This document shows positions 24,450 through 63,516 of a stretch of DNA of 64,000 nucleotides, one piece after another. Every line of letters begins with the position of its first letter. The first letter of the stretch is position 1. Source of the stretch: Candidatus Bathyarchaeota archaeon (GTDB lineage: Archaea > Thermoproteota > Bathyarchaeia > Bathyarchaeales > Bathyarchaeaceae); contig CAVOMX010000018.1 in assembly GCA_963697165.1 (NCBI GenBank), positions 32,001-96,000 on the forward strand, written 5' to 3'. The notes under the pieces are model-generated. The model worked only from the letters and a program-made list of their open reading frames with translations, was not told where the DNA came from and ran no database searches. Made by a program: the position numbers and the translations under genes.

Positions 24450-25873
24450 ATGTCAGGAAAAGAAACTAAGGGCGGAATAAAGCAACTTAGTCCAATCGAC
24501 GTTTACATGCTTCTTCCTAAAACAAACTGCAAAGAATGTGGAGAAGACAACTGTATGGCTTTTGCCACAAAAGTGGTGAACCGAGAAGTCAGCATAGATC
24601 AGTGTCCTCCGCTTCTGACCAAAGCAAACGAAAAGAATTACAGTAAACTCAAGGAAATGCTCAAGCCAGCCGTTAAAGAGGTGGCTGTTGGCGTTGGCGA
24701 CCGTGCAGTTAATGTTGGCGGAAAGCTGGTTATGTATCGTCACGAGTTCACATACACTAATCCGACCGCTATTGCCATTGACGTTACCGACGAAATGTCT
24801 GACGACGAAGTATTAGCTAGAGTGAAGAAGACCCAAGACTTTACTTACCTTTACATCGGCAACAACCTGCAGCTTCAAATGATTGCGGTTCGTTCAACTT
24901 CAAACGACGCCGAGAAATTCAAAGCAGCAGTTAAGAAGGTTGCAGAAAACACGAATTTGCCAATAATTCTCTGCTCATTTGATGCCAGCTATCCTCGAAG
25001 GCGGTTTGATGGCGATTCCGAAAGCTAGACCTCTATTGTATGCTGCCACCAAGGACAACTGGAAGGAGATGGCGGAATTGGCGTTGATGTATAACTGTCC
25101 GTTAGCTGTTTCTGCGCCAAACGACATTTCTCTTCTCAGATCACTGGTAAAGACTCTGAACGAATACGGCATCGAAGACCTTGTGTTAGACCCCGGAACT
25201 TTCACCAGTGCAGGTTTAGGCGACACAATCAACAACTTCACCATGATCCGCAGAGCAGCATGCAGCATGGGCGACGAACTACTAGGATATCCTCTAATCG
25301 GAACCCCTATTGTAGCTTGGACTGAACCCGCAAACTCTCCGACAGTGAATGCATGGAAAGAAGCTTACGTTGCATCAATGCTTGTAACCCGCTACGCTGA
25401 CATCCTGATTATGCATGGCACAGAAGGCTGGGCACTTCTTCCGTTGACTGTGTTGAGGCAGAACATTTACACTGACCCCAGAAAACCTGTTGCTGTAGAA
25501 GCAGGATTAAGAACCATCGGAACTCCTGACGAAAACTCTCCAGTGCTGATGACATCCAACTTTGCATTAACATACTACACTGTGGCACAAGACATAGAAT
25601 CCGTCTGGTACATCTGCCTATCTCATAGTTGTTGATTCTGAGGGAACAGCCATAGACAGTGGAGTCGCCGGCAGAAAACTGACTGCGGAAACTGTTGCAG
25701 ACGCCATCAAAGAGAGCAAGCTAGAAGAAAAAGTGAAACACCGAAAACTGATAATACCCGGCAAAGCGGCACGCATCAGCGGAGAAATAGAAGAGTCTTT
25801 CCAACTGGGAAGTCTTGTTGGACCACGAGACTCTTCAGGCATACCCAAATTTTTGCAAGAAAAATGGAAGTAG
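24450..25873 (+). CDS. cdhE: Corrinoid Fe-S protein large (gamma) subunit (frameshifts near 24980, 25607, 25800)
   Basis: LPKTNCKECGEDNCMAFA...CPP, RQNIYTDPRKP, NFALTYYTV; the 3' part reads HRKLIIPG...VGPRDSSGIPKFLQEKWK*. Confidence 0.93.
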
Positions 25874-26051
25874 CTTAACCAGCTACTTTTCTCTTTTTGT
25901 TTCTTTTTTGTTGTTTTCTCGTTTGGTTTTGTTGATCATGCTGTAATGTACATGCTTTTTTGGTAATTACCGCCGTTTATGAGGTAATATTTTCCAGAAC
26001 TATTTAAATAACTCCAATAAAAGTCATGATTGGTATAAGGCGGATTTAAAA

Positions 26052-26619
26052 ATGCCTAAGCTTGAAGATTCCATCCGAATCGAAAACGTAGTGTCGTCTG
26101 CCACATTGTTTCAGAGTATAGACCTGAACGCTGTTGTTAAGGGAAACCCCTTAGTTGAGTATCGTCCGGAAAAGTTTCCGGGTTTAGTTTTCAGATTAAA
26201 AAAGCCCAAGACTGCAATTCTAATTTTCAGTACAGGAAAAATGGTTTGCACTGGAGCCAAGTCTGAGAATGAATCAAAAAAAGCTGTTCTGAAAGTTGTA
26301 AGAGAACTGAAAAAAAGCGGAATAATAATAACTGGCAAACCCGAAATCAGAGTGGTTAACATAGTTGCCTCAGCGAATCTTTTGGGACGAATAGAGCTGG
26401 AAGATTGCGCCTACTCTCTAGGAAAGAACCATGTATGAGCCAGAACAGTTTCCGGGTCTCATCTACAGAATGAGTGACCCAAAAGTTGTGATTCTTCTCT
26501 TCGCAAGCGGGAAACTTGTTTGCACTGGAGCCACAAAAGAAGAAGACGTTTACAAAGCGGTTGACAAACTTCACAAAGACCTTGAAGAAAAAGACCTCAT
26601 ATACTACGAAGAAGATTGA
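26052..26619 (+). CDS. tbp: TATA-box binding protein (frameshift near 26428)
   Basis: IENVVSS...[12 protein letters not shown]...[13 protein letters not shown]; second repeat NIVAS...[12 protein letters not shown]...[12 protein letters not shown]. Confidence 0.96.
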
Positions 26620-26907
26620 ACCTGATTATGCATGACCCGTTTGACGTTTCTGTTATCTATCAATGTCTACTTTTTAGTTGGTACCTAAAATCTGAGTATT
26701 CCCTGATTGGAATTACTAGGAAATATACAGCCAATTTATGCGTAATCTACTTTTTTTGATTCTGTAAACACTGCGCATATGCATTCGTTCTTTGATACCT
26801 GTTTAAGTGTACATGTTCCTACTTTGATACCAGCGTTTGGCATCGTGTAAAAGAAAAAAAGAAAATAAAAAAATTGAATTGACAAAAATAGATGTTAGCT
26901 TATGAGC

Positions 26908-27060
26908 TTAATATCTATTTCTTCTCGGGGGTCTTCGTTTAGCGTAACATTCTCGACAATATACAGGTCTGCTTGAATCTGGCTTGAAAGGAACTTGACA
27001 TTTTTGTCCACATTCACCACAGACTGCATCGTGCATTTCGCGTGGTCCACCATATGACAT
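26908..27060 (-). CDS. CxxC-x17-CxxC domain small zinc-ribbon protein
   Basis: Manual translation MSYGGPREMHDAVCGECGQKCQVPFKPDSSRPVYCRECYAKRRPPRRNRY*; GGAGGTG upstream; below the ORF-track cutoff. Confidence 0.9.
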   Translation of the reverse strand: MSYGGPREMHDAVCGECGQKCQVPFKPDSSRPVYCRECYAKRRPPRRNRY

Positions 27061-27427
27061 TCATGATTGCACCTCCTATCTATTCAAGAGAATTAGTTTC
27101 ACAGGGCACTAACTCTAAAAATTCTTACCTTAAAGTTACTTATAAACTTGTGTACAATCAATTAAAATTTCTGCAAGAAAAACGGAAGTATCTCTAGCCT
27201 TTTTTCCTTTTTTCAGAATTAGTTCACATTTTTTAATGGAACACTGTTTCCACATTTTTTACATTTAATCGTAACCTTGCTTATAGACAGTTAGCCTGAA
27301 GGGTGTTAAACGTCCACATTTTTGGCATTTAGACAAACTGTAGTTTTCCCCTGTCTTTTTTGTGAATTGTTTCAACTAACGCCGAAAAAATGTTGTAGTC
27401 TTTTTGATCTGGAATTTCCACAACAAC

Positions 27428-27738
27428 TCACCTCACTAACATTGGGGCTTCAAGTTCTTGTGGTTTCAGAAGGTTTGACATTTCTTTGTAATTTTCGATG
27501 TAATTGTTACCTTTAGCTGTTGTTTCATAGAATTTCTTTCCGTTCTCCACGCGGACTCTGAGGAACCCCATTTCAGTTAGGAAAGAAAGATACTCGTTTA
27601 CTTGGCTAAAACTCAAATTCACCCTATACATGATTCGGGTTTTAAGTTGCTCTTCCTTTTGCAACTTCCATTATTTCCGCTAATATATTGAGCTTGTCTC
27701 TACGTTCCCAAAGTGTTTCAATAGTTATTGCTTTTCAT
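27428..27738 (-). CDS. Archaeal winged-helix regulator (HTH_45-like; frameshifted)
   Basis: RRDKLNILAEIMEVA...LKTRIMYRVNLSFSQVNEYLSFL...YETTAKG. Confidence 0.8.
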
Positions 27739-43234: not shown

Positions 43235-44158
43235 ATGAGAAGTTTGAAAAAGAACAAAAAAGGTGTCTCCACAGTCGTAGGTTCGATGCTTTTCTTAATC
43301 ATAATAATAATGTTAGCCTCAACTCTGTTTCTTGGACTCTACGGCTACAACAATAGTGCACAAGAAGCAATCATACTAGAAGAGGCAAGAGCTGAAGAAA
43401 AAATAGTAATTGATGAACTAGTAACAGACGCAGAAGTCACAGAAATAACTGCGATAAATGTTAAAAATGTCGGCTCAAGTGCAGTCAGGATACGCGCTAT
43501 TTATGTAGATAATACTTTGATTTATGATCCCTTAACTTACATTGATGCAAAAGAGGATGCATTACTAACATTACCAGATCCAACTCCCTACACGTCTACT
43601 TCAATAATTACAGCTGCAACTGAAAGAGGAGTTAAATCTACAATAGAAGAAGGAGATCTGATAGAAAACTATCAAACCCCTCTTGATAACGAATTTTATT
43701 TTGGGCCTTTAAAATTGGATTTTGAAGAATTCTATTACATCAAGGTTTTGGAAGGAACATATGATCCGACTGAAATCGAGCCAGGATGGAATCCTGATTC
43801 ATCTACAACTTTGGTTTGGCGAATAACCGTCACTAACATTGACACCAGAACGATTAATCTAACTAAATATTCGTGTCTCACGTTGATTGACAATGCAGGT
43901 GGTTCTCAAAGACCATGGTACATCGAAAAAATTGAACATGAAACTGGACCTAATTCATCATCGATCCTGCCTCAGGAAACTGTAAACATATTTTACAGAT
44001 GGGATAATCCGATATCACAAAAACATCAAAGCGTTTTTTCAAACGATTGCCAATGCAGAGTAATTTTAACCTTTTTTGGATCATTTGACCTATCTGGTGA
44101 CAGAACTATTCCGTATGGTCAGACAATACCGTTTGAAGCTGTTTTAATCGATAAATAA
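43235..44158 (+). CDS. Large minor pilin-like protein 2
   Basis: KKG|VSTVVGSMLFL; NVG..VRIRAIY, ATERG; ends QTIPFEAVLIDK. Confidence 0.82.
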   Translation: MRSLKKNKKGVSTVVGSMLFLIIIIMLASTLFLGLYGYNNSAQEAIILEEARAEEKIVIDELVTDAEVTEITAINVKNVGSSAVRIRAIYVDNTLIYDPLTYIDAKEDALLTLPDPTPYTSTSIITAATERGVKSTIEEGDLIENYQTPLDNEFYFGPLKLDFEEFYYIKVLEGTYDPTEIEPGWNPDSSTTLVWRITVTNIDTRTINLTKYSCLTLIDNAGGSQRPWYIEKIEHETGPNSSSILPQETVNIFYRWDNPISQKHQSVFSNDCQCRVILTFFGSFDLSGDRTIPYGQTIPFEAVLIDK

Positions 44159-45411
44159 TGAAGGAAGCAATGAAAATGAAAAAAATTAGAAAGTTTAGAC
44201 AAGATAAGAAGGGAGTTTCATCTCTATTCATTGCTATTTTCATTGCTTTATTGTCTATAATGCTAATTTCAACCCTATTTGTTAGTTTAGTGATTTCAAG
44301 TTCTGCATTGACCGACAATTTGAGGCTTGAACAAGAAAAGATGCAAGAAAGTATTAAATTGCAGGGACCAAATGGATTAGAATTGCTTCCTGATCAGGCC
44401 ACAGTGAAATCGTTAAGAGTAAAAAATAACGGAGCAATACCTGTAAGGATAAGGGCGTTATATATTGGTCAAGAATTTATTTGTGATCCTTCAGAAGCTC
44501 CAAATCAAGACACTTTTATAGCACCAGGAAAAGAAAAATGGATTGATTTATTTTTTGATCATCCAAATTTGCCAATTATCCTCGATGACGATATTATAGA
44601 ATCTTTGTGGACAGTAGCAACAGAAAGAGGCACACGATCATCCGAAACAGGTGCCGATATTCAGTTTGGAAAACCCGGAGAGACAAGTCTTCCGCAGTTC
44701 TATATTGGTCCACTTATGATTTTTTTTGATATGTTTAACTGGAAAAGTGCTGATGGCGAATGGCAAAGCGGTTGGACAATACCTAAAACTGCTGATGAAG
44801 TAACGTGGCGTATACTATTAAGAAACGTAGATCAACGTCAAATTACACTTAGAGACACATCTTTCTTTAATTTAGTGTGTAACAACAATATTCCCAACAA
44901 CATTTTAGACTGGTATATTGACGATGATGCAGCTAGAAGAGTGTTTAATCCGGGTCAATACCATTATGTGCACTTCACAGTTGACAAAAATGGGAAACCC
45001 CAAGGTATCAACAGCTTTCAAGAATGGACATCGTGTATTAACTTTCTAGTTCTCACAGGCATATTTGAAGATGGGTCATATATTGGACAAACAATACCTT
45101 TTGAAGCAGTGCTTGTAACGCCTGAACCAGAATTAACTATAACTGCTAACCCATCAACTGTACCGCCTGGTTATGGAACAGAATCTAAATCCCTAATAAC
45201 TGTGACATTGACGGATTCTTTGGGAACACCGATTCCTAATTCTTTGGTTCACTTTTCGACAAATTTGGGTGCTATAACCGAGTTCTCAATTACAGACCTT
45301 GATGGGGTTGCACAAGTTACTTTCACTGCAGGACTCGTTACTGGAAGAGCTGCTTTGACTGCAACAAGTCAAGGGGCATCTGATTCAACAACTGTAACTG
45401 TGAGACGATGA
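44158..45411 (+). CDS. Large minor pilin-like protein 3 with C-terminal Ig-like (Big_1/invasin-type) domain
   Basis: KKG|VSSLFIAIF; NNG..VRIRALY, ATERG, QTIPFEA, then ITVTLTDSLGTPIPN..V.F....TDLDGVAQVTF. Confidence 0.82.
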   Translation: MKEAMKMKKIRKFRQDKKGVSSLFIAIFIALLSIMLISTLFVSLVISSSALTDNLRLEQEKMQESIKLQGPNGLELLPDQATVKSLRVKNNGAIPVRIRALYIGQEFICDPSEAPNQDTFIAPGKEKWIDLFFDHPNLPIILDDDIIESLWTVATERGTRSSETGADIQFGKPGETSLPQFYIGPLMIFFDMFNWKSADGEWQSGWTIPKTADEVTWRILLRNVDQRQITLRDTSFFNLVCNNNIPNNILDWYIDDDAARRVFNPGQYHYVHFTVDKNGKPQGINSFQEWTSCINFLVLTGIFEDGSYIGQTIPFEAVLVTPEPELTITANPSTVPPGYGTESKSLITVTLTDSLGTPIPNSLVHFSTNLGAITEFSITDLDGVAQVTFTAGLVTGRAALTATSQGASDSTTVTVRR

Positions 45412-45468
45412 TGCCATGTTTACACAGTTTATATTATTTCTCAAAAAAGTAATTATGGAGATGTAAGC

Positions 45469-47089
45469 GTGAAGAAGTTCTGGAATGGTTGGGTAAAACA
45501 AAAACAAAATGTTGAAATTGACCAATTAGTTGTCGAAACCCAAACTAATACATCCAATGATTTTGCTGAAGAAGTGTTAGTTGAGCCCATAGAGATTCCA
45601 GAGACGTTTAAAGAATATTATCCTCTGCTAGATCCCCACTCTTACGCTGCTATAGTAGAAGATAATAAAAATGAACTTAAATATTCACTTTTAGAACCCA
45701 CTCTAACTTTAGAGGATAAAAAGTGGATTAAAGAGATAAAAGACATTTTATGGGATGAACTGTTAGTTAACTCCAAAGAACTTAAAAACAAAGATGAATC
45801 AGAACAATTTCTAAAAACAAAAATTGAGGAAAAAGTCAAAGAAATACAAAATAGAAGTTAACATAAACGTATTAGACAAATATCAATACTACATAACACG
45901 GGATTTCCTGAATTTTGGAAAAATTGATGGATTAATGCGAGACGATAATATTGAAGACATCTCTTGCGATGGTACGGGGATACCCATGTTTGTTTGGCAT
46001 CGAAAATATGAATCTATTCCCTCTAACATAATTTTTGAAACTGCAGAAGAGCTTGAAAATTTTGTTTTTAAACTTGCTTACATGTGCGGTAGACACATCT
46101 CGATTGCTCAACCTTTACTTGATGGGACTCTTCCAGATGGAAGCAGAGCACAAGTAACCTATGGCACAGAAGTAACACCCAAAGGCAGCACTTTTACTAT
46201 ACGAAAATTCAAAAAAACTCCTCTCACCATCACTGATCTTTTGGTTTACAATGCGCTTTCACCAGAAATGGCAGCTTACTTCTGGTTTCTTATCGAGAAT
46301 CGACATTCAGTAATGATAGGTGGTGATATCGGAGGAGGAAAAACTTCTATGCTAAATGCAATTAGCCTCTTCATCAGACCGACCTTAAAAGTAGTAAGTA
46401 TTGAAGACACTCAAGAGATTAGATTACCTCATCAGAACTGGGAAATGATGGTAACCCGCCAAGGACTGGGTACAAGTGGAGGCGCAATGGGTGAAGGGGG
46501 AATCGGATCAATTAGTATGTTTGATCTTCTACGTGCTTCATTAAGGCAAAGACCAGACTTTATTATCGTAGGTGAAATTCGAGGTGAAGAAGCCTACGCT
46601 CTATTTCCAAGCCATGGCTACCGGACATCTTGGTTTGACAACAATTCACGCTGAACATGTTCAAGGTGTACTGCATAGGCTTACAACAAGACCAATGAAT
46701 ATTCCACACACGCAAGTAGAAAACTTAAACGCCATATCTATTGTCCGAAGACTGGTTGTTGACAATGTTTCCTTAAGGAGGACAGTTAGTGTTTCCGAAA
46801 TGGTTGGTTGGGACAGAAAAAAGAAGGATTTCAAACTAAAAGAAATTTTCAGATGGGACGCTGAAAAAGACGTTTTCACTAAAGTGGGAAAAAGTCCCTT
46901 GCTTAAGCAAATAGCAGATCAATGGGGTTATTCTATGAATGAAATTGACCAGGAACTTAGAAAAACGAAAAGTGATCCTAGAATACATGGTGTTAAAAAA
47001 CATACGCTCCTACGAGGACGTCTCTAAACTGGTTTTAGATTATTTCTGCTGAACCAGAAAAAATCTACAGAAAAGCAAAGGTGAATTAA
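45469..47089 (+). CDS. Type II/IV secretion (pilus assembly) ATPase, VirB11/TadA family (frameshifts)
   Basis: IEDISCDG, FTIRKF, Walker A GDIGGGKTS, IEDTQE, LRQRPDFIIVGEIRG, AMATGH..TTIHA. Confidence 0.93.
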
Positions 47090-47094
47090 AAACA

Positions 47095-47973
47095 ATGATA
47101 CTTGACCCATGGAGCTTTGCCTATAGAATCTTCAGCAAAAGAATTGATAGGTATTTACCTCAATTCCAAGATGTTCATATTCAACTCAAAAAAAGTGGAA
47201 GACGAGTTACCTTCAAAGCTTATATTTCCTTTATGTTTTTTGCCTCAACTATTGCATTCGTAGCAACGATGGTAGTGTCTCCACTTGTGTTACCATTCAT
47301 TCTTGGATTTGCATTTTTATCTGTCGCCAATATTTTGCTTAGCTTAATGTTTGCAGGTCTCGCTTTTGTTTTAACTCTAATATTTTTCTACTTATATCCC
47401 GGTATAATGGCAAGTAACCGAAAAATCCCAATCGAAAACAATCTACCTTACATTTCTAGCTTCTTGACACTGCTCTCAAGCTCAAATGTACCACCAAGTG
47501 TAATTTTTCGTTCAATGGCTAGAATTGAGACCCTCTCAGAAGTTAAGCTGGAATTTAGCAACATCGTAAGAGATGTAGAAGTTTTCGGGAAAGATCTTAT
47601 GAATTCAATCCTTGAGAATGTGAAATACACTCCAAACGATAAATTACGTGAAATGCTCAAAGGATATGTCGCAACGGTTCGAACCGGAGGTAATCCCACT
47701 GAATATCTTAGAATTTCTACTGATAATTTAGCAAGAGAAAGAATGAGTAAACTAGATGTAATGTTAGAATCTTTATCTGCTATAGCTGAAATCTACATCT
47801 TAGTTCTCGTTGCTATGCCCCTGCTTTTCGTTGTGCTGCTTGCTACCTTAGGTATGATAGGTAGCGGAGGAATGGGTATGAATCCTGCCTGGATACTCTA
47901 CCTCTTAACTTATGTAGGAATCCCCATAATGGCCGCTGTAATAATTGTATTAGTTTCAACTTTTGAGAAGTGA
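47095..47973 (+). CDS. Type II secretion system F / TadC-like platform protein
   Basis: IENNLPY...IVRDVEVFGKDL...TP...E.Y.; TM helices; follows the ATPase. Confidence 0.88.
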   Translation: MILDPWSFAYRIFSKRIDRYLPQFQDVHIQLKKSGRRVTFKAYISFMFFASTIAFVATMVVSPLVLPFILGFAFLSVANILLSLMFAGLAFVLTLIFFYLYPGIMASNRKIPIENNLPYISSFLTLLSSSNVPPSVIFRSMARIETLSEVKLEFSNIVRDVEVFGKDLMNSILENVKYTPNDKLREMLKGYVATVRTGGNPTEYLRISTDNLARERMSKLDVMLESLSAIAEIYILVLVAMPLLFVVLLATLGMIGSGGMGMNPAWILYLLTYVGIPIMAAVIIVLVSTFEK

Positions 47974-47980
47974 TTCTAAA

Positions 47981-48821
47981 ATGAAAATAATAAGAAAAAC
48001 ACTCAAAAAAATTACCATCATTTCAGCCATAGCAGGGATAGCTTTATTCTTTTGGTGCAATACCATTCTACATTACTTCCTCTGACTTGGACTATGTTCT
48101 GGTCTTTGCGTTTACTGTCGCTGTTTTGCCTCCAGGAATTGCTAGTATAATCCATAATCGATGGCAAAATAAAATAGAAAAAGCAACCCCCGAATTCTTA
48201 AGAGATCTATCCACATCCTTTCGAACAGGTATGCCCCTATATGCTGCTCTTGAACATGCAGCCAAAAGAGATTATGGTCCTCTAACTACAGAACTCAAAT
48301 TGATGGTGTCTCAAATGAGTTGGGGAATGAACTTTAATGATGCACTTATGGAATTTAGCAAAAGAATCGACTTACCGTTAATAAAAAAAGCTACTGTTCT
48401 TATCCTGGAAGCTGGAAGACATGGAGGAGATCTTTCAGAAATCTTTGACTCCACAGCAAAATATGTAGATAATGTTAACGCATGGACCAATAAAAGAAGA
48501 ATGCAAACACTACCTTATGTGGCTATATTCTATTTCTCAGTAATCATATTCCTTTTCATAATCATCCTTATTACAAACATGATATTTGCACCCATGAGCG
48601 AAATTGCAGAGGGAGGATCTGCTGGACTTATAAATCCAATTCTTTCTTCCGAAATAGCTAGAAGAGTGTTTTTGCACACAGCCCTTCTAGAAGCACTCTT
48701 TGGCGGTATTCTCGCAGGAAAAATACATGAAAATTCGTTTCTTGGAGGCTTAAAACACGCAGCAGATACTAGCGATAACCTCAGGATTTGCCTTCTTTCA
48801 TTTTCTTCCAATAACCATTGA
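47981..48821 (+). CDS. Second TadC-like platform protein (frameshifts at both ends)
   Basis: PEFLRDL...GMPL..AL...DYGPL..E....Q.SWG..F..AL; GG.L.EI. Confidence 0.88.
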
Positions 48822-48858
48822 CATAACAAGAGGATAGAATAATAGAAGGAAGAAGAAA

Positions 48859-50069
48859 ATGAGAAGAAGAGCAATAACGAAGCGCAACAAGAAAAGGAAG
48901 AACAATCATCTGTTCAATAGAAGCTCTATCGAAAGTAAAGAAAAATCATCAAAGACCAAAGAAACTGATGAATATCTCCAGGAAGAAAGAAAAGAAGCAT
49001 ATCTTGAACGCCCTTCACAAAATCTACTTAGAAGTCTTTTAAAAAACGGTAATAACGCGGAAATAATCCCGATTTATGATCCAAAATTAGGATTTATTTA
49101 TCGAACTGCCGAACAAGCCTTTGAAGAAGAAATATCCACGCCAAGAAGTTTTAGACTTTCTAGAACGTCTTACACGATTAGGTATACTTGAAAAGAGGTT
49201 TTTTGACACTGTTTCGACATGCCCACATTGTGAATCAACTGCAATGACGCTACATTATTATTGTCCAAAATGTAAAAGCCACAACCTAGTTAAAACTAAT
49301 CTAACCGAACATATTCCATGTGGTTTCATAATAGAAAGAGAAAAGTATGTCAACGGAAAATGTCCAAGATGTGATGAACCACTCACAGATAAATCAATAC
49401 AGGAACATGGGACGATGGTATATTTGCAGAGATTGTAACGAAAAATTTGAACATCCTGACCTCGAAATCAATTGTCGAAAATGTAATAGAATCTTCACGA
49501 TCGAAGAATCTAAAGTTCTAGAAATACCCAAATTTACTCTCAACACAATAAGAAAAAATGAGATAAGGCAAAACGTCGCCAGCCTTCAAAAAATAAGTAA
49601 ACTCCTACAAGACCTCAAATTCCAAGTAGAAATTCCCGGAATAGCCATTGGACAAAAGAGCGGTATGAAACACCATTTTAGCCTAATAGCAAGAAAGGAA
49701 ATACAGGGAGAAGAAATTATTATAGCTCTTGACCATGCAGTAAGCGAAAGTGAAGTCCAATCATCTCCACTTATACTTTATATCTACAAGACTTCTGAAG
49801 TAAAAGTTGATATACCAATCTTTATAGCGATCCACAAACTTAGCGAAAAAGCAAAAAAAGTAGCCCAAGGTCACCAAATTTTGCTGATCGAAGGCTCACC
49901 AGAAAGCCAAGAAACAATTGACCAAATAAAAATAGAAATAGAATTCAGACTTATACAAAAAACCCAGCCACACACAGAAACACCAATTCTGCCAAATGAA
50001 CAACAAGAAAAGAAAGAAGACAAAAAAACAAATGGATACACAGAGCGAAATAAAACCACAATTATTTAG
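48859..50069 (+). CDS. TackOD1-like multi-zinc-ribbon protein with C-terminal endonuclease-fold-like region (frameshifts)
   Basis: IIPIYDPKLGFIY / LERLTRLGIL / CPHC..CPKC..EHIPCG..CPRC / CRDC..CRKC / IPG...GQKSGMKHHFSL. Confidence 0.7.
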
Positions 50070-50297
50070 CACAATATCCTCCATACATCAACCTCAAAAA
50101 TCAAACTAAAAAATTTAACCGATTCATGAAAACCATAAAGAAAACTGCAAAAAGAGACAAAAGACGCCCTATAACAAACAATGAAAAATGCAATCAAAAT
50201 TGAAAGCTACCAAAGCTCTCGTTATTGATTTACATTTCCAGTCAGCTTCACGAAATCATAATGTCTAAAATTGAAGAAAAGAAGGAAACAAGACAGA

Positions 50298-50771
50298 ATG
50301 GTTCAACCAGAAAACCAAAATAACGAAAATTCTGAATATGTAAGCTACTGTGGACTATTCTGTCCAGACTGTCCTCTTGTACGCTGGTAAAGTCTCCGAT
50401 TTAGCTAGAGACCTTACGGAAGGAACTTAGAAGAGTCCAATATGACAAGTTCGCAAAGTATATTTCCAAGTTCCCAGCAGGCAAAGAATTAGAAACAATT
50501 CAACGAATGCTACACAATTCTTGGCACTCTAATGAAGTTTCGGTGCGAAAGAGGCTGCAGATTGGGTGGAGGAACAGACAATTGTCAAATAAGACAATGC
50601 AATCAAGATCAAAAACTACAAGGTTGCTGGCAATGCAAAAAATATAAAAATTGCACAAAATTAGACTCTTTAAATGCTCTCCATGGAAACTGCGCATCGA
50701 AAAAACTTGAAACCATCCAAAAAAAGGGTATTTCTGAATTATCCAAGGAAAATAATCCGTGGTATAGCTAA
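50298..50771 (+). CDS. DUF3795-like cysteine-rich protein (frameshifts)
   Basis: VSYCGLFCPDC (manual translation) ... CERGCR....CQIRQC......GCWQC....C. Confidence 0.7.
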
Positions 50772-50817
50772 CAAATAAAATGACTCTGGTGCAGGTGTGA
50801 AAACAAATATTGTCAAT

Positions 50818-51163
50818 TTAGCTTTCAATTTTCGTTTTTTTATTCCATCTTTTTAGAAACAACAATACTATCGCTGAGAAAAGAAGTAGGATTCCTATTA
50901 GATAATAATGAATAAGTTGTAAACCTATTCCCAAACTGATACTTTCTCCTGTTCGGGAGCCAAAAAATATTAAGCTGAAGTCTTTTCCCCAGACTGTTAT
51001 ATCTTTCCACATTACAAATCCAACCTGATATAAGGGCCATTGACCCAATTACTATTAAGGAAATTATTACCACATTAAATGGTGTGAAATAAGTTTTCAA
51101 TTCTTTTAATAGACCAGATTTTTCTTGTTGCTGTTCAAGATTTTCTGTTCCACTTTTCTTCAT
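50818..51163 (-). CDS. Small membrane protein (frameshift near 51040)
   Basis: Two overlapping hydrophobic ORFs join: VIISLIVIGSMAL / YQVGFVMWKDI...YYLIGILLLF. Confidence 0.55.
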
Positions 51164-51368
51164 AGTAGAGTAAAAAATCAATATCATACTCTCCACTATT
51201 ACTTTTTTTAGAGTTAATATAAACTATGTAAACCGTATTCATTTGTCAAAGCATTGTGATATTACTCGAGTTTCTCCCCCAAACTCTTCTTTTCTTCTTT
51301 TATGAGCACTGAATTTAACTTAGCTATTGTAACAATAATTATTAATTAAATGCTGATTATAAAAAATT

Positions 51369-51488
51369 TAGAAAGAAGGGTTTGCTGAGGCTTCTACACA
51401 GTTGTTGATGAGTAAGGTCACATTCAACCTTTTTTCAAGGGGGAAAGAATGTGTACTCCTGTGCTTGAGCCATTTCAGCCCCATTCTA
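51369..51488 (+). ncRNA. Putative structured rod-like hairpin element, copy 1
   Basis: Nested pairings TAGAA/TTCTA, GGG/CCC, GCTGA/TCAGC, GGCTT/GAGCC, CACAG/CTGTG, an 8-nt bulge, GAGTA/TACTC, CACATTC/GAATGTG; homologous to 54193-54317. Confidence 0.5.
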
Positions 51489-51957
51489 TTCCTTTTATTA
51501 GTTCAAAAAAAGGGGGAAGATTTTTTGTGCATTGTATTGTATAAATAAATTTCATCATCCCAAAGCATTAATCAAGATTTTTTCTTTTATTGGTGTTACG
51601 AGTTCTGGTCGTTTTATGTTGAAAAAATGGCAATTGGTTCCGTTGTAGAAAACAGTTGGTTTAGGAAATAGATTGCATTTACCGTTGATTTTTCCCCCGT
51701 TGATCAATATTGGATTATGAGCAATTGATCCGAGTAACGACCATTACTCATTAACAAATAATTATGTAAAGTATTTAGAATATAAAATTTTGCATAAAAT
51801 GATGAAGAAATAACAGTTCCTTTTGATAAACAATTTATTATTTCCCCGAACGCACATTTTCATTCAAACATAAACCTAGGGTATCTTGACTAAGGGGATT
51901 TGTCTATAAGGATATAGTTGGATTAGACCTTCTGTCGATTGACTTGAAGCTGCCCCT

Positions 51958-52779
51958 TCACGGTGACGCTGGAGCGAGCATCGGTGGATAGGAGTCCGAA
52001 GGATATTGAAGGTGAATCAACAGTATGAGCCCTAAGACTGTGGAATGCCACTTTTCGATATCAGGAGAATCCCAGCTTCCATCAGCATTCTGGTTCGCGA
52101 TGACACACTCAATAAAGGCATCGTCTACCCGTTCGCCCTGACCCGCCAGGCATAGGAAAGCTGCAGCTTCAAGCTCGATGTCATAAACCGACGAGTCTGA
52201 ATTAATTAATTCAGCATTAGCACGATATATATCTTCAACAAAATCTTGGGAGATTACCTCTTCACAACCGTTCTCTTGAATCCATATCCAAGCTAGTAGT
52301 ACATGAGTAAGATTGTATCCTCCCTTTTTTGCCGCTTCCTCAAGCATCTCAGGATAATTTTTAGGTAGCCCCAACCGATCACAATATAATGCAGGGATAA
52401 CGAAAATGTTGGTTTCACCCTGCTTATTCGCTTCATAAAAATCTGAAGGCGCAGGTTGATTGTTTTTATCTGCAATGCGTCGAAATACAGACATAGTTGG
52501 TGCAATAAGCGAATTGCTGAAAATTTCTTCGTCAAAACGCTGCAAGGCATCCGCGAACTCTAAAATTCCAAAGCGACGATAAATTACGTCGAGAAAAAGC
52601 AGGGCGTACGGATCGCGCGAGCCCTCGAAGAAGTCAATCGCTTTTTCGACCGCTACCAAATAATCTGATTGGACTGGTAAGTCTGGCGAAGGGTGCAGCA
52701 TTAGAAATACTACCAATAGACTGCATAACGCGGTTATAGCAAAAGCCAAAAAGAAAGCTCTACGTTTATTGATTTTCAT
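51958..52779 (-). CDS. Membrane-anchored hypothetical protein, alpha/alpha-barrel-like (QW-type motif)
   Basis: N-terminal TM helix; YNLTHVLL; IANQNADGSW; WHSTVLGL. Confidence 0.7.
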   Translation of the reverse strand: MKINKRRAFFLAFAITALCSLLVVFLMLHPSPDLPVQSDYLVAVEKAIDFFEGSRDPYALLFLDVIYRRFGILEFADALQRFDEEIFSNSLIAPTMSVFRRIADKNNQPAPSDFYEANKQGETNIFVIPALYCDRLGLPKNYPEMLEEAAKKGGYNLTHVLLAWIWIQENGCEEVISQDFVEDIYRANAELINSDSSVYDIELEAAAFLCLAGQGERVDDAFIECVIANQNADGSWDSPDIEKWHSTVLGLILLIHLQYPSDSYPPMLAPASP

Positions 52780-52926
52780 AATTGTTTTCTATCCTTCCTT
52801 TTGCAAACATTAAACCAATTTTTTTCAACTTTTCCTAAACTTTTGTTATAAATCTATTTGTCATGCTTATAGGTTAAAAAAATTTTGCATGATCACCTCC
52901 CTAAGAATACTTGGACGACAAAGGTC

Positions 52927-53067
52927 AAGCTAAAAAATACTTACTTTTTCATCCTAGGATGTTATTTTGAACTAATAATAGATATAACATTAAGAGTGTC
53001 AGCATCTCACTGACAAATTTTATATAATTAATAAGTTCTAAATAACGTTGGGGAGAAACAAATTTTG
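52927..53067. promoter_or_regulatory. Divergent promoter block, copy 1, with palindrome TGTCAG-N7-CTGACA (52997-53015)
   Basis: Colinear similarity to 57137-57276; lies between the 51958-52779 gene and trmB. Confidence 0.65.
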
Positions 53068-53874
53068 GGTAGTGCGGGGAATATTCAAACCTTTACCCGT
53101 TTAGGTTTTACTGCTAACCAAGCAAAAGTATACCTTGCTCTTATTGACAGAGAGTTTTCTGCTGTAAAAGAAATCCAAAAAACCTCAGAAGTGCCTCGCC
53201 AAGAAATTTACAAAATCTTATCCACACTTCAAGAGATGGGTCTTCTACAATCAACATTAACTAGACCCGTCATGTTTAAAACAATTCCAATCCAACAAGC
53301 AGTCTCCTTTTTATTGGAAAGAAAAATCAAGGAAACAGAAAATCTGCAAAAAGAGGCAGAATCATTGGTAGAGAATTATCAACATGAAAATCATAATAAT
53401 CAAGTTCAGGAATTTAAGCCCCAGTTTGTTTTAATCTCAAAACAAGAAGCATCCATAACGAAAAGGCGAGACGAGATTGATAACGCTCAATTGAGCCTCG
53501 ATTTCATCACGTCATGGAAGAGATTTCCACTAACAATTCGTACCTTCAGAGAAAATGGAAAAAAAGCCTTAGAAAGAAAAGTGAAAATAAGGGTTATACT
53601 AGAAAAGCCAAAAGACATGAATGAGCTACCAGAGGAAATGTATGATTTCGAGAAATTCTCTAATTATCAACTCAGATATATTATTGATCCCCCTAAAGCG
53701 ATAGCAGCAATTTTCGATAAGAAAAAGGCAATAATCAAAACCTCTGCATTAGGAGGTCTGGCAGACGCTCCAGCTTTATGGTCTGACAACCCATGTTTTC
53801 TATCAATATTATCTGACTATTTTGAGTTAATGTGGATAACAGCAATAGAACATTCACCAGAACAGATTTTTTAA
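53065..53874 (+). CDS. TrmB family transcriptional regulator
   Basis: LGFTANQAKVYLAL...VPRQEIYKILSTLQEMGL...P..F; C-terminal IFDKK...LWSDNP...YFELMW. Confidence 0.9.
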   Translation: MGSAGNIQTFTRLGFTANQAKVYLALIDREFSAVKEIQKTSEVPRQEIYKILSTLQEMGLLQSTLTRPVMFKTIPIQQAVSFLLERKIKETENLQKEAESLVENYQHENHNNQVQEFKPQFVLISKQEASITKRRDEIDNAQLSLDFITSWKRFPLTIRTFRENGKKALERKVKIRVILEKPKDMNELPEEMYDFEKFSNYQLRYIIDPPKAIAAIFDKKKAIIKTSALGGLADAPALWSDNPCFLSILSDYFELMWITAIEHSPEQIF

Positions 53875-54192
53875 GAACATCCTGATGTGCTCAAAGAGTA
53901 ATACTAAATGATAATTTAGCCGAAATGTTCGTCTGGGTGACCACATCTCCCGATTAATTCCCCCTTTTTCCAGCTTTTCTGAAATAAAGATCACCATATA
54001 AAGAGTAGTCTAACAAGGTTTAACGCCAGGAATAAGGGGTTTCCTGAGGTTAAACACGGGAAATTATGAGAGAGAAAACATGGAAATTTATACTATTATA
54101 CTCATTTTTTAATCGGTCTTTTTTCCTGTATTTACTCCTTTTCAGTATGCTGGAGAAATTTTGGCCTGAAGAAACGCGAATGAAAAATAATG

Positions 54193-54317
54193 TAGGAAGA
54201 AGGGTTTGCTGAGGCTTTAGCACAGTCGTTGATGAGTGATGAAACAATTATAGGCCGAATAGAGGAGAATCATGTTTCAGTCTTCTGTGTTTGAGCCTTT
54301 TCAGTCCCTTATTCCTA
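54193..54317 (+). ncRNA. Putative structured rod-like hairpin element, copy 2
   Basis: TAGGAA/TTCCTA, AAGGG/CCCTT, GCTGA/TCAGT, AGGCTTTAGCACAG/CTGTGTTTGAGCCT (G.U pairs), 8-nt bulge TCGTTGAT, TGAAACA/TGTTTCA. Confidence 0.5.
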
Positions 54318-54359
54318 TAATCTTTAACTCCCACAAAAAAAGGGAGGGAAAATTTGGGA

Positions 54360-57088
54360 TTATTTTCGCTTTTTGTAATACCCAGAAAGCTGCTACGCCT
54401 ACTACTGCTAGCAACAACTACAGCTGCGATGATTGCGACTTCGGTGGTGATCAAAGGTGTTTCAGGGGTTGGCTCTGGCGAAGGCGAGGGTGACGGTTCA
54501 GGTGAGGGTGAAGGCGATGGCGAAGGTGAAGGTTCAGGTGAAGGCGATGGCGAAGGTGATGGAGAAGGTGAAGGTGATGGCGAAGGCGAAGGTGAAGGTT
54601 CAGGTTCTATTGGACCACCAGGTGAAGTTGCTGGACCTACTGTAACCCATGTAGTAGAAGATGAGCTACCGTAGGAGTCGTCTGCTTCAAAAGATGCAAT
54701 TATCTTGTATGTGCCTTCTGCTGTTGGAGTCCAAGCTTTTCCAAAGGTTCCCGAATATCCGTCAGTTGTTACAGTCCCGATATCAACATACGATCCATCT
54801 TCAGCTATTGCACTAAGAACTACTGGAACCCCAGTAATCGTCTCGTTGTGCCAAATGCCGTCAATTGGATACCCGAAGAATAGGTATTGCATTTGAGTAT
54901 TCATAGAATCTGCAGATACGCATGGTGTGCCTGACAGATCTGGACTCATGTCAAGGACACTTCCTGTTATCGTCATAGCCGTTCCTTTTGGTACAGCAGT
55001 TAATGGACCCATAACTGTTGTTTCGCTTTCACCTTTGCCGAAGACATACATGTATCCGTCATTGCTGGTAATTGTGAGGTATCCGTCTGCTATTGGACCT
55101 GGACCTCCCCAAGTCCATGGTCCCTCTAGTTTCCATACTGGCTCGCCTGTAATAGCGTCCACACAGTTTACTCCCCATCCTCTTGTGATGGGCGGAGTTG
55201 GAGTGTGCTCGTTATTTAATGTGTAGAGTTTTCCATCAGCAATCCAAGCATCTACTATCGAACGAATATACTGTTGTGCCGATCATGTCACGATATGGAG
55301 TTTCGTATACGCTTGATGCTGGGTCTTCGTATTTCCATACTATGTCCCCAGTGTCCCAGTCAAAGGCATAGATACCGTCGTAGGATTGTCGGTAAAACAT
55401 GCCGTAAGCTGACTCTATAGCGTATCCTCCGAAGCTGGCTTCTCCCCAAGGATATTCCATCAAATCGCTTGTCCATGCTAGGGTTCCTGTAGCTAGATTC
55501 CAACTTTGAAATACCCGCCTTTGAATAGTATTGCGACTTTTCCATGGTCTGCGACAGAAACTGATCCGCTATACATACCTTCGGAGGGCAATTCAACTTC
55601 CCAGAGCTGTTCACCTGTTAGCAGGTTATAACCTTGTACTTTTGTTCCATAGGATTGCTCCCATTTGAGGTGGAGTTATACTGCTATATGTTGCACCATA
55701 GCCTGATTCGAAGTCATACAGAGTAGGAATACTGCTTCTCGCGTAGGATGTGTTGCTTATTATATCGGGTTCACGCCCACGGCCGATATTACCGAAACCA
55801 GCTGGCTTTTGCGCAGTGCTCCAGTTGATTAAACGGTATTCAGGGTGCCTGTCGCCGATGATTCTGTATGCTCAACGCATAGCAGTTCCGGTAGTACAAC
55901 GCTGAGGACGTTAATGCTGGAATTTCCACGTCTAAACCTAAAGCTCCAGTGAATGGATTATACTTCTTCAGACGACCACCGCCTATGTAAATAAGACTTG
56001 CATAGCCTATATCTCCAAAAGCGCGCCCTGAACCGCCAGGAACTTCTCCACTTCCCTCATCGTATTCGATGTATTGGGGTGTACCGTCAACATCTGTCTT
56101 TTCCCAGTAGATTTCACCTGTACGTAAATCATAGCACTGCCAAACGCTTCCTGTAGTTCCATCCGGCAACACTTTTGTAACTGTTTGGTAGCATCTTCCA
56201 GCATAGATTATGTTTGGTGTACCTGGATCCCCGCTCATTTGGAACATTGGGACGTTCGATCCTCTTCTCGCTTCCCCTCCGACTACGCCAGCTATGTCTC
56301 CTTGTCGTCTCCACACTATGTGAGATGTCTCTGGTGCCTCGCGATACGGAAGGAAATCATATCTGTCACTATAGAATCTGTTTGTGTCAGCTGGCCAGTC
56401 TGATCCCACTCCCGGACCATGCCATGGATAGTTTCCTGCTATTGATGCCCACTCTCTGTTCACAAATTGTATGGGTCGTGTCCAGTAGTCGGTTGGAAGA
56501 GCTAGACTCAGGCCAAGAATATACAATGTCTTCTTGTACTGTCAAGTTCCTGCTTTGCAGTGGAGGTAGGTCTATAGTAGCAATCATCATCAAAGTGGAT
56601 GGTGACACCAGCTACGGTCGCACCACCAGCGATATGCTTGGTAGTCTCCTGCTGGGAAATAGCTTCCAGGGAAGATAAACTGGATTGTCCATGTACCAAC
56701 CTGGTCAACTATCCATGGGAACCACGATGTTGAGTCTCCACGATAGGTAGGCAATGTGTAGTTCGGTTTCATGTCCTGAGGGATTTGTGATTACGACTGT
56801 GTAATCTGAGTGGTAGCGGACTACATGAGTTGGGGGCTCAAGCCACATGTTAACTAGGATTTCCTGGTTAACTCCTACGGGGTTAGGTCTGAAGCTGAGA
56901 TAAGCTTTGGTGTCGACTTCGAAACTAGGAGTTACGCCAGCAGGAAGAGGTATTGAACCACCTTCTTCCACTCCTCCTGTACCTTGAGCTTGTATTGAAA
57001 CAGTTGTCATTAGCATAAAAGCAGAAATCATCATAAGAACAATAACGATTGTAGCTGTTAATTTTGTTTTGTTTATTGAAAATTTCAA
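54360..57088 (-). CDS. Large secreted PQQ-like beta-propeller repeat surface protein with Ig-like domain, Pro/Ser linker and C-terminal TM anchor (many frameshifts)
   Basis: Signal peptide; AYLSFRPNPVGVNQ; CYDLRTGEIYW; YAFDWDTGDIVWKY; DAITGEPVWK; IADGY; (PS)n linker; ITTEVAIIAAVVVA anchor. Confidence 0.85.
54472..54606 (-). repeat. Coding low-complexity repeat (PS)n/EPS linker
   Basis: EPEPSPSPSPSPSPSPSPSPSPEPSPSPSPSPSPEPSPSPSPEP encoded by degenerate 6-bp units. Confidence 0.9.
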
Positions 57089-60955: not shown

Positions 60956-61697
60956 TTAATTACCGCCGAACCAAACCGGCTTCAGCGAAAAGGGTATCTC
61001 TTCTACTGACAGCCCACCTGCTGCAATGTTTAGTTTTAGTACTTGAGGTTTTAAGGGTACGCTTCGCGACTTCCGAAGAAGGAAAACACGTGTCCATACT
61101 ACGTCATGCTTTCGGTAGTCAAGATATATCAAGTGGTCTACAAGGTATTCGGTGATTCCTGGATTCGGGGGAATACCTTCGGCACTAAATAGCACAGTGG
61201 CTCCTTGGCGTTTGGTTTCTATTAGTAGCTTCATGAAGACTTGCTCGGAATTCATTAGAGTTAGATAACCGCCTAGCCAGTGAAGATAGTGAGTCAATTA
61301 CAATTCTGGAGGCACCGGGTTGTGCAGCTAATCCTTTTTCAACGATGCCCATGGCTTCCTGTTTTGTCAACCAGACAGTATTCGCTATGTAGCTTGCAGT
61401 GATAGACAAGTTAACGACTTTTATTGTTCCATTTCGGATTAGGTTAGGGAAGTCGGACCAGAGTTCGCCTCCTGTTCGCATTACTGTTTCAGGGGTTTCT
61501 TCTGTTGTGATGTACAGGCATTTTTCGCCGTTCTTTGCGCCTTTGTAAAGGAATTGCAAACAGCAGATAGTTTTACCAGTACCAGGTTCACCTCGCACCA
61601 GTATTGCATCGCCTTTTGGAATGCCGGGAATAAATTTTTCCAGGCCATCCAGCCCGATGTCGATCCATTCAATATTTGACGTTTGTTGCATTGTCAT
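60956..61697 (-). CDS. Single-domain KaiC/RAD55-like RecA-superfamily ATPase, copy A (frameshifts)
   Basis: GEPGTGKT, LYITTEE, IVIDSLS, EYLVDHLIYL, LRKSR. Confidence 0.88.
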
Positions 61698-61797
61698 ACT
61701 GAATCACCTCTCATTCAATTAAAATGAGGTAATATTGACAATTTGTATATAAATATTTCCTTTTCTCTGAATGTTTTTTTAGAAAAATAACTATTAA

Positions 61798-62326: not shown

Positions 62327-63072
62327 TTAGATTTTGCTTTGGAACCACACAGGATTTAGTGCGAATGGTGTTTCTTCTACTGATAGTCCACCTTTTTCGA
62401 TGTAAAGTTTGAGTATTTGGGGTTTTAGGGGTACGCTTCGGATTTTCGAAGAATGAAAACGCGGGTCCACTCTGTGTCTTGTTTTCGGTAGTCAAGGTAT
62501 ACTCAAGTGGTCTACAAGGTATTCGGTGATGTCTGGCGTTAGAGGGATACCTTCGGCGGTGAGTAGTACAGGTTGATCCTTGGCGTTTGGTTTCCAGTAG
62601 TAGCTTCATGAAGACTTCTCGGAATTCTTCGGGGTTAGAGAGACGTTTTTCCAGTGAAGATAGAGAGTCAATTACTATTCTTGAGGCTCCGGGTTGTGTA
62701 GCCATTCCTTTTTCAGCAATGTTCATTGCTTCTGCTTTTTCAATTACACCGTATTGGCTGGCATAGTCTGCAGTGATAGACATGTCAACGATTTGTATTG
62801 TTCCATTTTTGACTAGTTGTGGAAAGTCTGACCAGATTTCGCCACCTGCTCGCATTATTGATTCGGGGCTTTCTTCTGTTGTAATGTATAAGCATTTTTC
62901 GCCACTTCTTTGCGCCTTTGTATAGGAATTGTAAACATACAATAGTTTTGCCAGTGCCTGGGTCACCTCTCACTAGTATTGCATCACCTTTTGGTAGCCC
63001 TGGAATGAATTCGTCTAGTCCAGTCACTCCGAAGTCGACCCATTCAATTTTTGATACTTTTTGTGCCATCAT
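62327..63072 (-). CDS. Single-domain KaiC/RAD55-like ATPase, copy B (frameshifts)
   Basis: GDPGTGKT, LYITTEE, IVIDSLSS; C-terminus PLKPQILKLYIEKGGLSVEETPFALNPVWF parallels copy A. Confidence 0.88.
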
Positions 63073-63516
63073 ACTGAATCACATCTTATTCAATTAATAA
63101 TGTTAGTTATTGATTGTTTGTATATAAACATTTTCTTTTTAATGAATGTTTATTGATAAAATAGGTATAAATTGAATAAGTGTTCAATATGTTATTATTA
63201 AATCACATAGACATATCAACATTTTCAATTGATTAATACTAGACGATGTTTTACTAATAAACCACGAAAAATGTTGTAAATCAAAATACACCGAACAAAC
63301 AAAATATACATTTTATGCTCAAATAAAGACGGTGAAAATTGGGCTGGCGACCAGAGAAATTATCAAAAAATGAAAAAATCAAAAGCTGAACAAAAAACAC
63401 ACAAACCCAACCAGCAGGTAATCACAAGCATATAGTAGCCCAAAAGGGGGTGGCGCCAAAAACTCTAAATCCAGATTGCATATATAGACAAAAAAAATGC
63501 ATAAAGGTCTAGAACG

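Follow-up and report, generated by a model that had tools for sequence, protein, structure and literature searches.

In mirtrons and in bacterial small RNAs (sRNAs) derived from 3' untranslated regions (3' UTRs), a hairpin is cut out of an mRNA by housekeeping processing and becomes a regulator with a guide and a passenger arm; in integron attC sites and miniature inverted-repeat transposable elements (MITEs), one imperfect hairpin with unpaired bases stands behind each gene of an array. In archaeal mRNA, bulge-helix-bulge (BHB) introns are described for the cbf5 pre-mRNA of Crenarchaeota and, as a 46-nucleotide (nt) intron, for the 5' UTR of Haloferax HVO_1309, and the available portions of that source list no more than two mRNAs as substrates of the archaeal splicing endonuclease (PMC7714728). 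An archaeal sRNA that masks a ribosome-binding site (RBS) is sRNA162 of Methanosarcina mazei, according to the accessible part of PMC3510493. Here we describe a family of hairpin elements from a 64,000-nt stretch of DNA of a Candidatus Bathyarchaeota archaeon (assembly GCA_963697165.1, contig CAVOMX010000018.1; hereafter the window, in whose coordinates positions are given unless a contig is named), most of which follow genes of PQQ-like surface proteins. With confidence a little short of even, we propose that the element is an antisense RNA released from the 3' trailer of these mRNAs by the splicing endonuclease EndA, and that the released arm would mask the RBSs of the gene family in trans.

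Like the archaeal mRNA introns, the element has a bulge-helix-bulge-like geometry in the transcript of a protein gene, a short excisable piece, and EndA and RtcB at hand. However, as far as their source describes them, the cbf5 and HVO_1309 introns are single-copy and lie in the reading frame or the 5' UTR, whereas the element recurs in 3' trailers, with up to 22 copies in one genome; it is mostly of the relaxed form, its conserved payload is antisense to the gene family that carries it, and its cleavage is only predicted. Within what the accessible text covers, it would share with sRNA162 its likely mode of action, namely pairing to a translation-start region; it differs in being carried by each gene of the target family, aimed at the whole set of paralogs and placed inside a splice motif. 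Compared with mirtrons and 3'-UTR-derived sRNAs, the enzyme would be the tRNA-splicing endonuclease and not the spliceosome or RNase E; no Piwi-domain gene was found in five genomes, and a link to Argonaute was dropped. In contrast to attC sites and MITEs, the element has no core site, fixed ends, target duplications or consistent recombinase neighbour. By analogy, it would work as a BHB intron and an RBS-masking sRNA in one, and is a candidate member of either class.

A sequence-only reading of the window had drawn attention to two copies, copy 1 (51369..51488, minus strand) and copy 2 (54193..54317, minus strand). As it had described, the two hairpins share their outer arms and carry 8-nt one-sided bulges (51402-51409 and 54226-54233), and their inner stems are unlike in sequence yet still paired. 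Both fold better than dinucleotide shuffles on either strand, with z values of -2.70 (plus) and -3.38 (minus) for copy 1, and of -3.66 (plus) and -4.04 (minus) for copy 2. That reading had overlooked a third, divergent copy (54029..54157, minus strand), which lies in tandem to copy 2, has lost the outer helix and is antisense to PQQ-gene starts at 54066-54087. Copy 2 lies ~43 nt after the stop codon of a PQQ-like gene, with a U-rich hairpin (54327..54352, minus strand) in between, while copy 1 is an orphan, a PQQ-like gene being absent at its locus.

Read on the gene strand, the element runs from an outer helix through CUGA and three bases into an inner helix, and returns from the inner helix through UCAG and three bases to the outer helix. 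In copy 1, the BHB-like 5' half, CUGA (51478-51475) with the 3-nt bulge AAU, occupies 51472..51478 and the 3' half, UCAG (51388-51385) with the bulge CAA, 51382..51388; in copy 2, CUGA with AAA lies at 54298..54304 and UCAG with CAA at 54206..54212, all on the minus strand. Both copies are of the relaxed form, the closing pair being G.A in copy 1 and A.A in copy 2. The established BHB rule predicts cuts at 51473/51472 and 51383/51382 in copy 1, and at 54299/54298 and 54207/54206 in copy 2, which would excise minus-strand pieces of 90 nt (51383..51472) and 92 nt (54207..54298); across copies the predicted pieces measure 79-115 nt.

Because 40 of the 88 copies collected had been found with a pattern that demands the motif, motif conservation was counted in the 48 found by homology with a hidden Markov model (HMM). 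CUGA is present in 45 and UCAG in 43 of these, and the third bulge base is A in 45/48 and 46/48, respectively; the anchoring fixed the motif spacing, so that bulge length is partly imposed. The bulges lie 3' of a 4-bp central helix, which is the polarity of a BHB and of the 23S processing stem of the same genome. Of all cells, 82.2% were paired, and 20 of 29 pairs had changed on both sides; compensatory change is found in the flanking helices (5/6 outer and 5/5 inner pairs changed on both sides), and the central helix, strict on its inner side, is paired in 97.4% of cells. The covariation score was 0.254, against 0.146 for shuffles and at most 0.117 for slid controls, although related sequences inflate it. 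RNAalifold retained only five pairs on alignment A1 because the inner part aligns poorly; the pair counts above are those of the named structure.

Genes for two EndA subunits and for RtcB are present, the latter in three pieces (G000:C12:146531-147843, G000 being the genome of the window). The catalytic EndA subunit gave its best alignment with crenarchaeal-type structures, and a lysine aligns to K44 of chain 3p1z_B, where 3p1z is presumably the A. pernix enzyme. In the parts of the sources available, the K44-equivalent residue is tied to cleavage of relaxed motifs (PMC6379350), and two-subunit enzymes with that loop cut such motifs (PMC6379350, PMC7714728, PMC12397907); we infer that the EndA of this archaeon could likewise cut relaxed motifs, with broad specificity. 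Circular rRNA is known from Bathyarchaeia (PMC12918454), and archaeal circular RNAs of other kinds are covered in PMC12558985, both again as far as the accessible text goes. The 16S processing stem (G000:C14 ~25700-27660) lacks a clean bulge-helix-bulge and the 23S stem (G000:C9) has one; the 16S and 23S rRNA genes lie on different contigs.

In gene orientation, the usual order is a PQQ-like gene of ~850 amino acids (aa), its stop codon, a U-rich hairpin and the element, with 39-97 nt (mostly 44-60) from stop to motif. The sequence-only reading had asked whether further copies sit 3' of such genes, and most do: 15 of the 18 PQQ-gene ends detected in this genome have a copy within 630 nt, as do 14 of 15 in the one-contig relative G005, where 5 of 19 copies are without an adjacent PQQ gene. 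The gene before copy 2 (54360..57088, minus strand; stop codon 54360-54362), which lies in several frames in the assembly, encodes a PQQ-like beta-propeller surface protein with a signal peptide, an Ig-like domain, a Pro/Ser linker and a C-terminal membrane anchor; PF13360 scored above cut-off in two of three full-length proteins of relatives. Genes with PQQ domains are a known expansion in Bathyarchaeia, their surface proteins being proposed to act on lignin, in the portion of PMC11697101 available; the words repeat, intergenic and hairpin are absent from its main text.

Departures from the usual order were also observed. Tandem doubled elements stand behind single PQQ genes in several genomes (L285-L291), the second copy often being quite divergent. 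Solo copies lie in intergenic DNA of G005 without a PQQ gene (L281, L282, L283 and L089, the last having lost the 5' half of the motif); they retain the anti-start arm described below, and three of the four share a promoter-like motif upstream on the same strand, although two may be recent duplicates and the sigma-70 promoter scan is unsuited to archaea. In the genome of the window, copies not behind a PQQ gene are found at G000:C16:8508-8640, C18:121020-121129, C12:32676-32794 and C7:10030-10158, in contexts that comprise the 3' side of a protease-like gene, that of a membrane-protein gene, a position between divergent genes and non-coding DNA.

The covariance-model search of the Infernal type that the sequence-only reading had recommended yielded further homologs in this genome and in other Bathyarchaeia. 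This genome holds 22 covariance-model matches and 23 HMM matches, one of them a partial copy (C25) that was dropped from the counts. By BLAST, the element is present in 20 of 24 genomes of the same genus. Model R1 found it in 18 of 150 genomes of the class, among them 4/6 of the same family and 12/23 of family f9, with a single match on a short contig in family f24, and the phylum sample gave 5 of 150 genomes, all of the same order; in both samples only 22 candidates per genome were scored. The element was thus far found in two families within a single order of the Bathyarchaeia. Among the matches listed, named records that carry the motif were mostly Bathyarchaeia, including Ca. Bathyarchaeum tardum, with chance bacterial matches mixed in. 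Rfam 15 gave no family at the gathering threshold (six weak matches far below it for window 50000-56000, none in nine loci), and no description of the element was found in the literature searched, whose scope left subscription papers and supplements outside. Covariation above controls, many homologs and the lack of an Rfam match uphold the earlier view of a selected structure of an undescribed family.

The evidence for a target comes from the inner 3' arm, which in most relatives is complementary to the start region of PQQ genes: the Shine-Dalgarno (SD) sequence, the A-run, the start codon and two or three codons after it. The one-sided bulge contains the anti-SD or adjoins it. A search of the collection with the outer motif only gave 98 family-like matches, and 70 of them carry an anti-AUG and then an anti-SD in the 3' arm, against 5.6 expected in shuffles, none of 98 in the 5' arm and two on the other strand; the pattern was written after examples had been seen. 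In alignment scores (n=37, a set that still includes wrong starts from L097, L102 and one of L114, which were removed from the 98-match, net-energy and shuffle tests), the own gene reached 23.2, PQQ paralogs of the same genome 23.7, paralogs of other genomes 20.3 and control starts 15.2. Since the own gene does no better than its paralogs (p=0.47), the match is family-wide and not gene-specific. The arm also exceeded composition-matched shuffles (23.6 vs 16.6; better in 43/44), and in three genomes, with few controls, PQQ starts scored above the remaining SD-led starts of their genome (27.8 vs 15.7 in G005, 22.8 vs 18.2 in G013 and 26.7 vs 14.4 in G003). In the genome of the window, a PQQ start outscores all 2068 control starts for six of the 22 copies, copy 3 among them, in a test that sets the best of 14 starts against single controls and in which three of 17 PQQ starts were not located.

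The sequence-only reading had called a plus-strand RNA from a bias of G.U pairs to that strand. This call fails for the family: no wobble bias is found over the 88 copies (minus vs plus: G.U 87 vs 89, z -3.43 vs -3.22, p=0.16), and both the polarity of the cut sites and the position at gene 3' ends indicate the minus strand. Motif polarity, the constant upstream context and the promoter-like stretch shared by three of the four solo copies of G005 argue for the gene (minus) strand. Seventeen RNA runs contained 5-10% of the words, and four were examined; all contigs are from relatives, of unassigned strand and with possible DNA carry-over. Their coverage spans the PQQ gene and becomes sparse at the element, which is evidence neither way; two contigs continue for 100-330 letters beyond the U tract, where their sequence is unlike. 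Among the RNA-run contigs listed, none showed a joint at the motif, and a circle-junction pattern in metagenome contigs gave nine matches, all in GC-rich unrelated DNA.

As an RNA module in the same sense as the preceding PQQ-like gene, the element could act as follows. Transcription would pass the U-rich tract or, in solo copies, start at the element's own promoter; the two-subunit splicing endonuclease would cut one or both bulges, setting free an inner piece of 80-115 nt, possibly circularised by RtcB. The exposed pyrimidine-rich bulge may then nucleate pairing with the RBS of any mRNA of the family, and translation would be damped in trans, as a dosage brake on 15-20 paralogs, while the cut would also provide the mRNA with a defined, stem-protected 3' end. 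Of the options listed by the sequence-only reading, a processing signal comes close to this proposal.

Several observations weigh against the release of an antisense RNA. A strict BHB is formed in only 12 of 48 copies, where the pair closing the second bulge is canonical (A-U in nine, G-C in two, U-A in one) and covaries; most copies have G.A there, and pairing of this G with the first bulge base could instead lengthen their central helix to 5 bp. A strict copy of this genome lies at G000:C6:33794-33922. All three BHB helices exceed a probability of 0.5 in only 39 of 88 copies, and the central helix is near-invariant, beyond the needs of a nuclease that reads structure. Most of the antisense arm is base-paired within the rod, and mean net binding is -3.1 kcal/mol for PQQ starts and -2.5 for control starts; PQQ starts do better in only 13 of 24 cases, and the best pairs reach -10 to -15. 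Binding would therefore require unwinding, a single cut or the help of a protein. A raw duplex test ranked PQQ starts behind controls for all 22 copies of this genome, but it is confounded by A-richness, and seven PQQ starts were not located in it. Wobble pairs favour neither strand, folding energy is lower on the plus strand in 60 of 88 copies, and a terminator-like U tract lies upstream of the element. No cut, splice or circle junction was seen in the RNA contigs of relatives or in metagenome contigs, and, the copies and genomes being related, the p-values are overstated. Finally, 16 of the 22 copies of this genome, including both flagged ones, are without a specific PQQ-start match: 680 (copy 1) and 75 (copy 2) of the 2068 controls score as well as the PQQ start; the predicted piece of copy 1 has no specific match and that of copy 2 a weak, non-specific one. 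Copies 1 and 2 are part of a subfamily in which the cut-site scaffold is kept and the PQQ-start match lost; they would either have another target or serve in processing only.

Processing or stability alone is indeed the alternative that survives best, although we consider it unlikely. A cut by EndA, or the binding of another sequence-specific protein, would set and protect the mRNA 3' end, and the start-like inside would be a targetless relic of an inverted duplication of the 5' end. Retention of the scaffold in those 16 copies, the sequestered antisense arm and the near-invariant CUGA/UCAG, which suggests contact with a protein, fit this view; a relic would not be expected to follow each genome's own start style, to persist across two families and to be kept in solo copies that have no gene.

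A distinctly unlikely alternative is a fold-back switch in cis, for which hok/fbi serves as a model: the 3' arm would pair with the start of the same mRNA, and the EndA cut would remove the arm and turn translation on. Element and target are then on one transcript, and the high local concentration could offset the sequestration, but the equal match of own gene and paralogs speaks against such a switch, as does the existence of solo and tandem copies.

We regard it as highly unlikely that the selected structure is one of single-stranded DNA, either an attC-like recombination site that aids gene duplication or cassette movement, or a MITE. The one-per-gene-end placement, the tandem arrays in the same orientation, the extrahelical bases, the missing strand bias of wobbles and ten tyrosine-recombinase matches in the genome would suit it; however, a recombinase fragment near a PQQ gene is found just once (C1), no fixed termini, target duplication or attC core is found, no intron-less allele occurs among 25 genomes, and the anti-start arm and the cut-site geometry are left unexplained. 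The TA-targeting MITE offered by the sequence-only reading does not hold: flanking direct repeats of at least 4 nt occur in 3 of 88 copies, and the position behind one gene family is near-fixed. The TA ends noted for copies 1 and 2 are there, but do not extend to the family (10 of 88 copies, a count from rough end-calling in which the window copies themselves were not scored as TA). An integron attC site was rejected separately, as alignments A1 and A3 contain no RYYYAAC/GTTRRRY core and no consistent recombinase neighbour was found.

Most improbable of the four is a plus-strand RNA or small antisense open reading frame (ORF) whose real ribosome-binding site would account for the start-like sequence, since, for all that SD and ATG are read directly on that strand and its folding energy is more often the lower, its upstream flank is unconserved and the bulge motif has the uncut polarity there. 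A conserved antisense ORF was rejected (frames 37/28/13, no SD and ATG in 10, 42 of 78 shorter than 20 aa). A C/D box sRNA or K-turn was rejected as well: a UGAUGA-like word occurs only in one subfamily, after CUGA, and there is no Rfam match.

Returning to the EndA-released antisense RNA, a wider version of it is possible and is put forward tentatively: the family may be an archaeal counterpart of mirtrons, in which a 3'-trailer hairpin excised by EndA, probably as a stable circle, silences the RBSs of a whole gene family, with subfamilies retargeted to other starts, possibly that of the small ORF found after some of the PQQ genes. If this were true, EndA would be a routine producer of regulatory RNA. 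With up to 22 candidate EndA substrates in one genome and cut sites predicted at single-nucleotide level, the family makes EndA regulation of mRNAs directly testable in vitro and in RNA of Bathyarchaeia enrichments, and it hints at how the most expanded gene family of these archaea, that of PQQ-domain surface proteins, may be controlled.

The surroundings of copy 1 contain further features, all on the minus strand. Before it lie a U-rich hairpin or terminator-like tract (51501..51520) and a ~100-nt module (51489..51591) common to four other copy-1-type loci, with a TATA-like run at 51540-51552. At sister loci the module follows a PQQ gene and a 62-aa ORF, and only its ~100 nt are retained at copy 1, for which it is a possible promoter. 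ORFs of 62-75 aa with an invariant WHHR.PDF.LVYC core lie directly after the U-rich hairpin of some PQQ genes, before the element or replacing it (L249:250-438, on G000:C18; G000 C1, C3 and C9; L254 and L255). This ORF has 91 homologs and no Pfam family, with weak Atlas leads to integrase arm-binding domains (0.82), and its start region resembles the bulge of the flagged-copy subfamily. Its start was tried as the target of that subfamily: 12 of 14 match by eye, but 104 and 42 of the 2068 controls score equally, and G019 carries flagged-type copies with no small ORF found; it stays a lead only.

Between copies 1 and 3, a palindrome TGTCAG-N7-CTGACA (52997-53015) stands just upstream of TATA-like runs before a TrmB-family gene (53065-53874). 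The same palindrome is found upstream of several PQQ genes (G000 C9, C16 and C18; L114 and L115), and it could serve as the operator of a TrmB-type regulon. Numerous genes are broken into several frames, as in 44158-50069 and 54360-57088 of the window and in the RtcB gene, probably by insertion and deletion errors of the assembly. Two gene pairs are duplicated at ~80% identity, one 17.6 kb apart (1359-3552 and 18959-21152) and one, KaiC/RAD55-like by eye, 1.37 kb apart (60968-61786 and 62342-63161). Two other short repeats in inverted orientation, of 44 and 38 nt and 86-89% alike, lie at 45418-45461/51190-51233 and 12489-12526/38127-38164.

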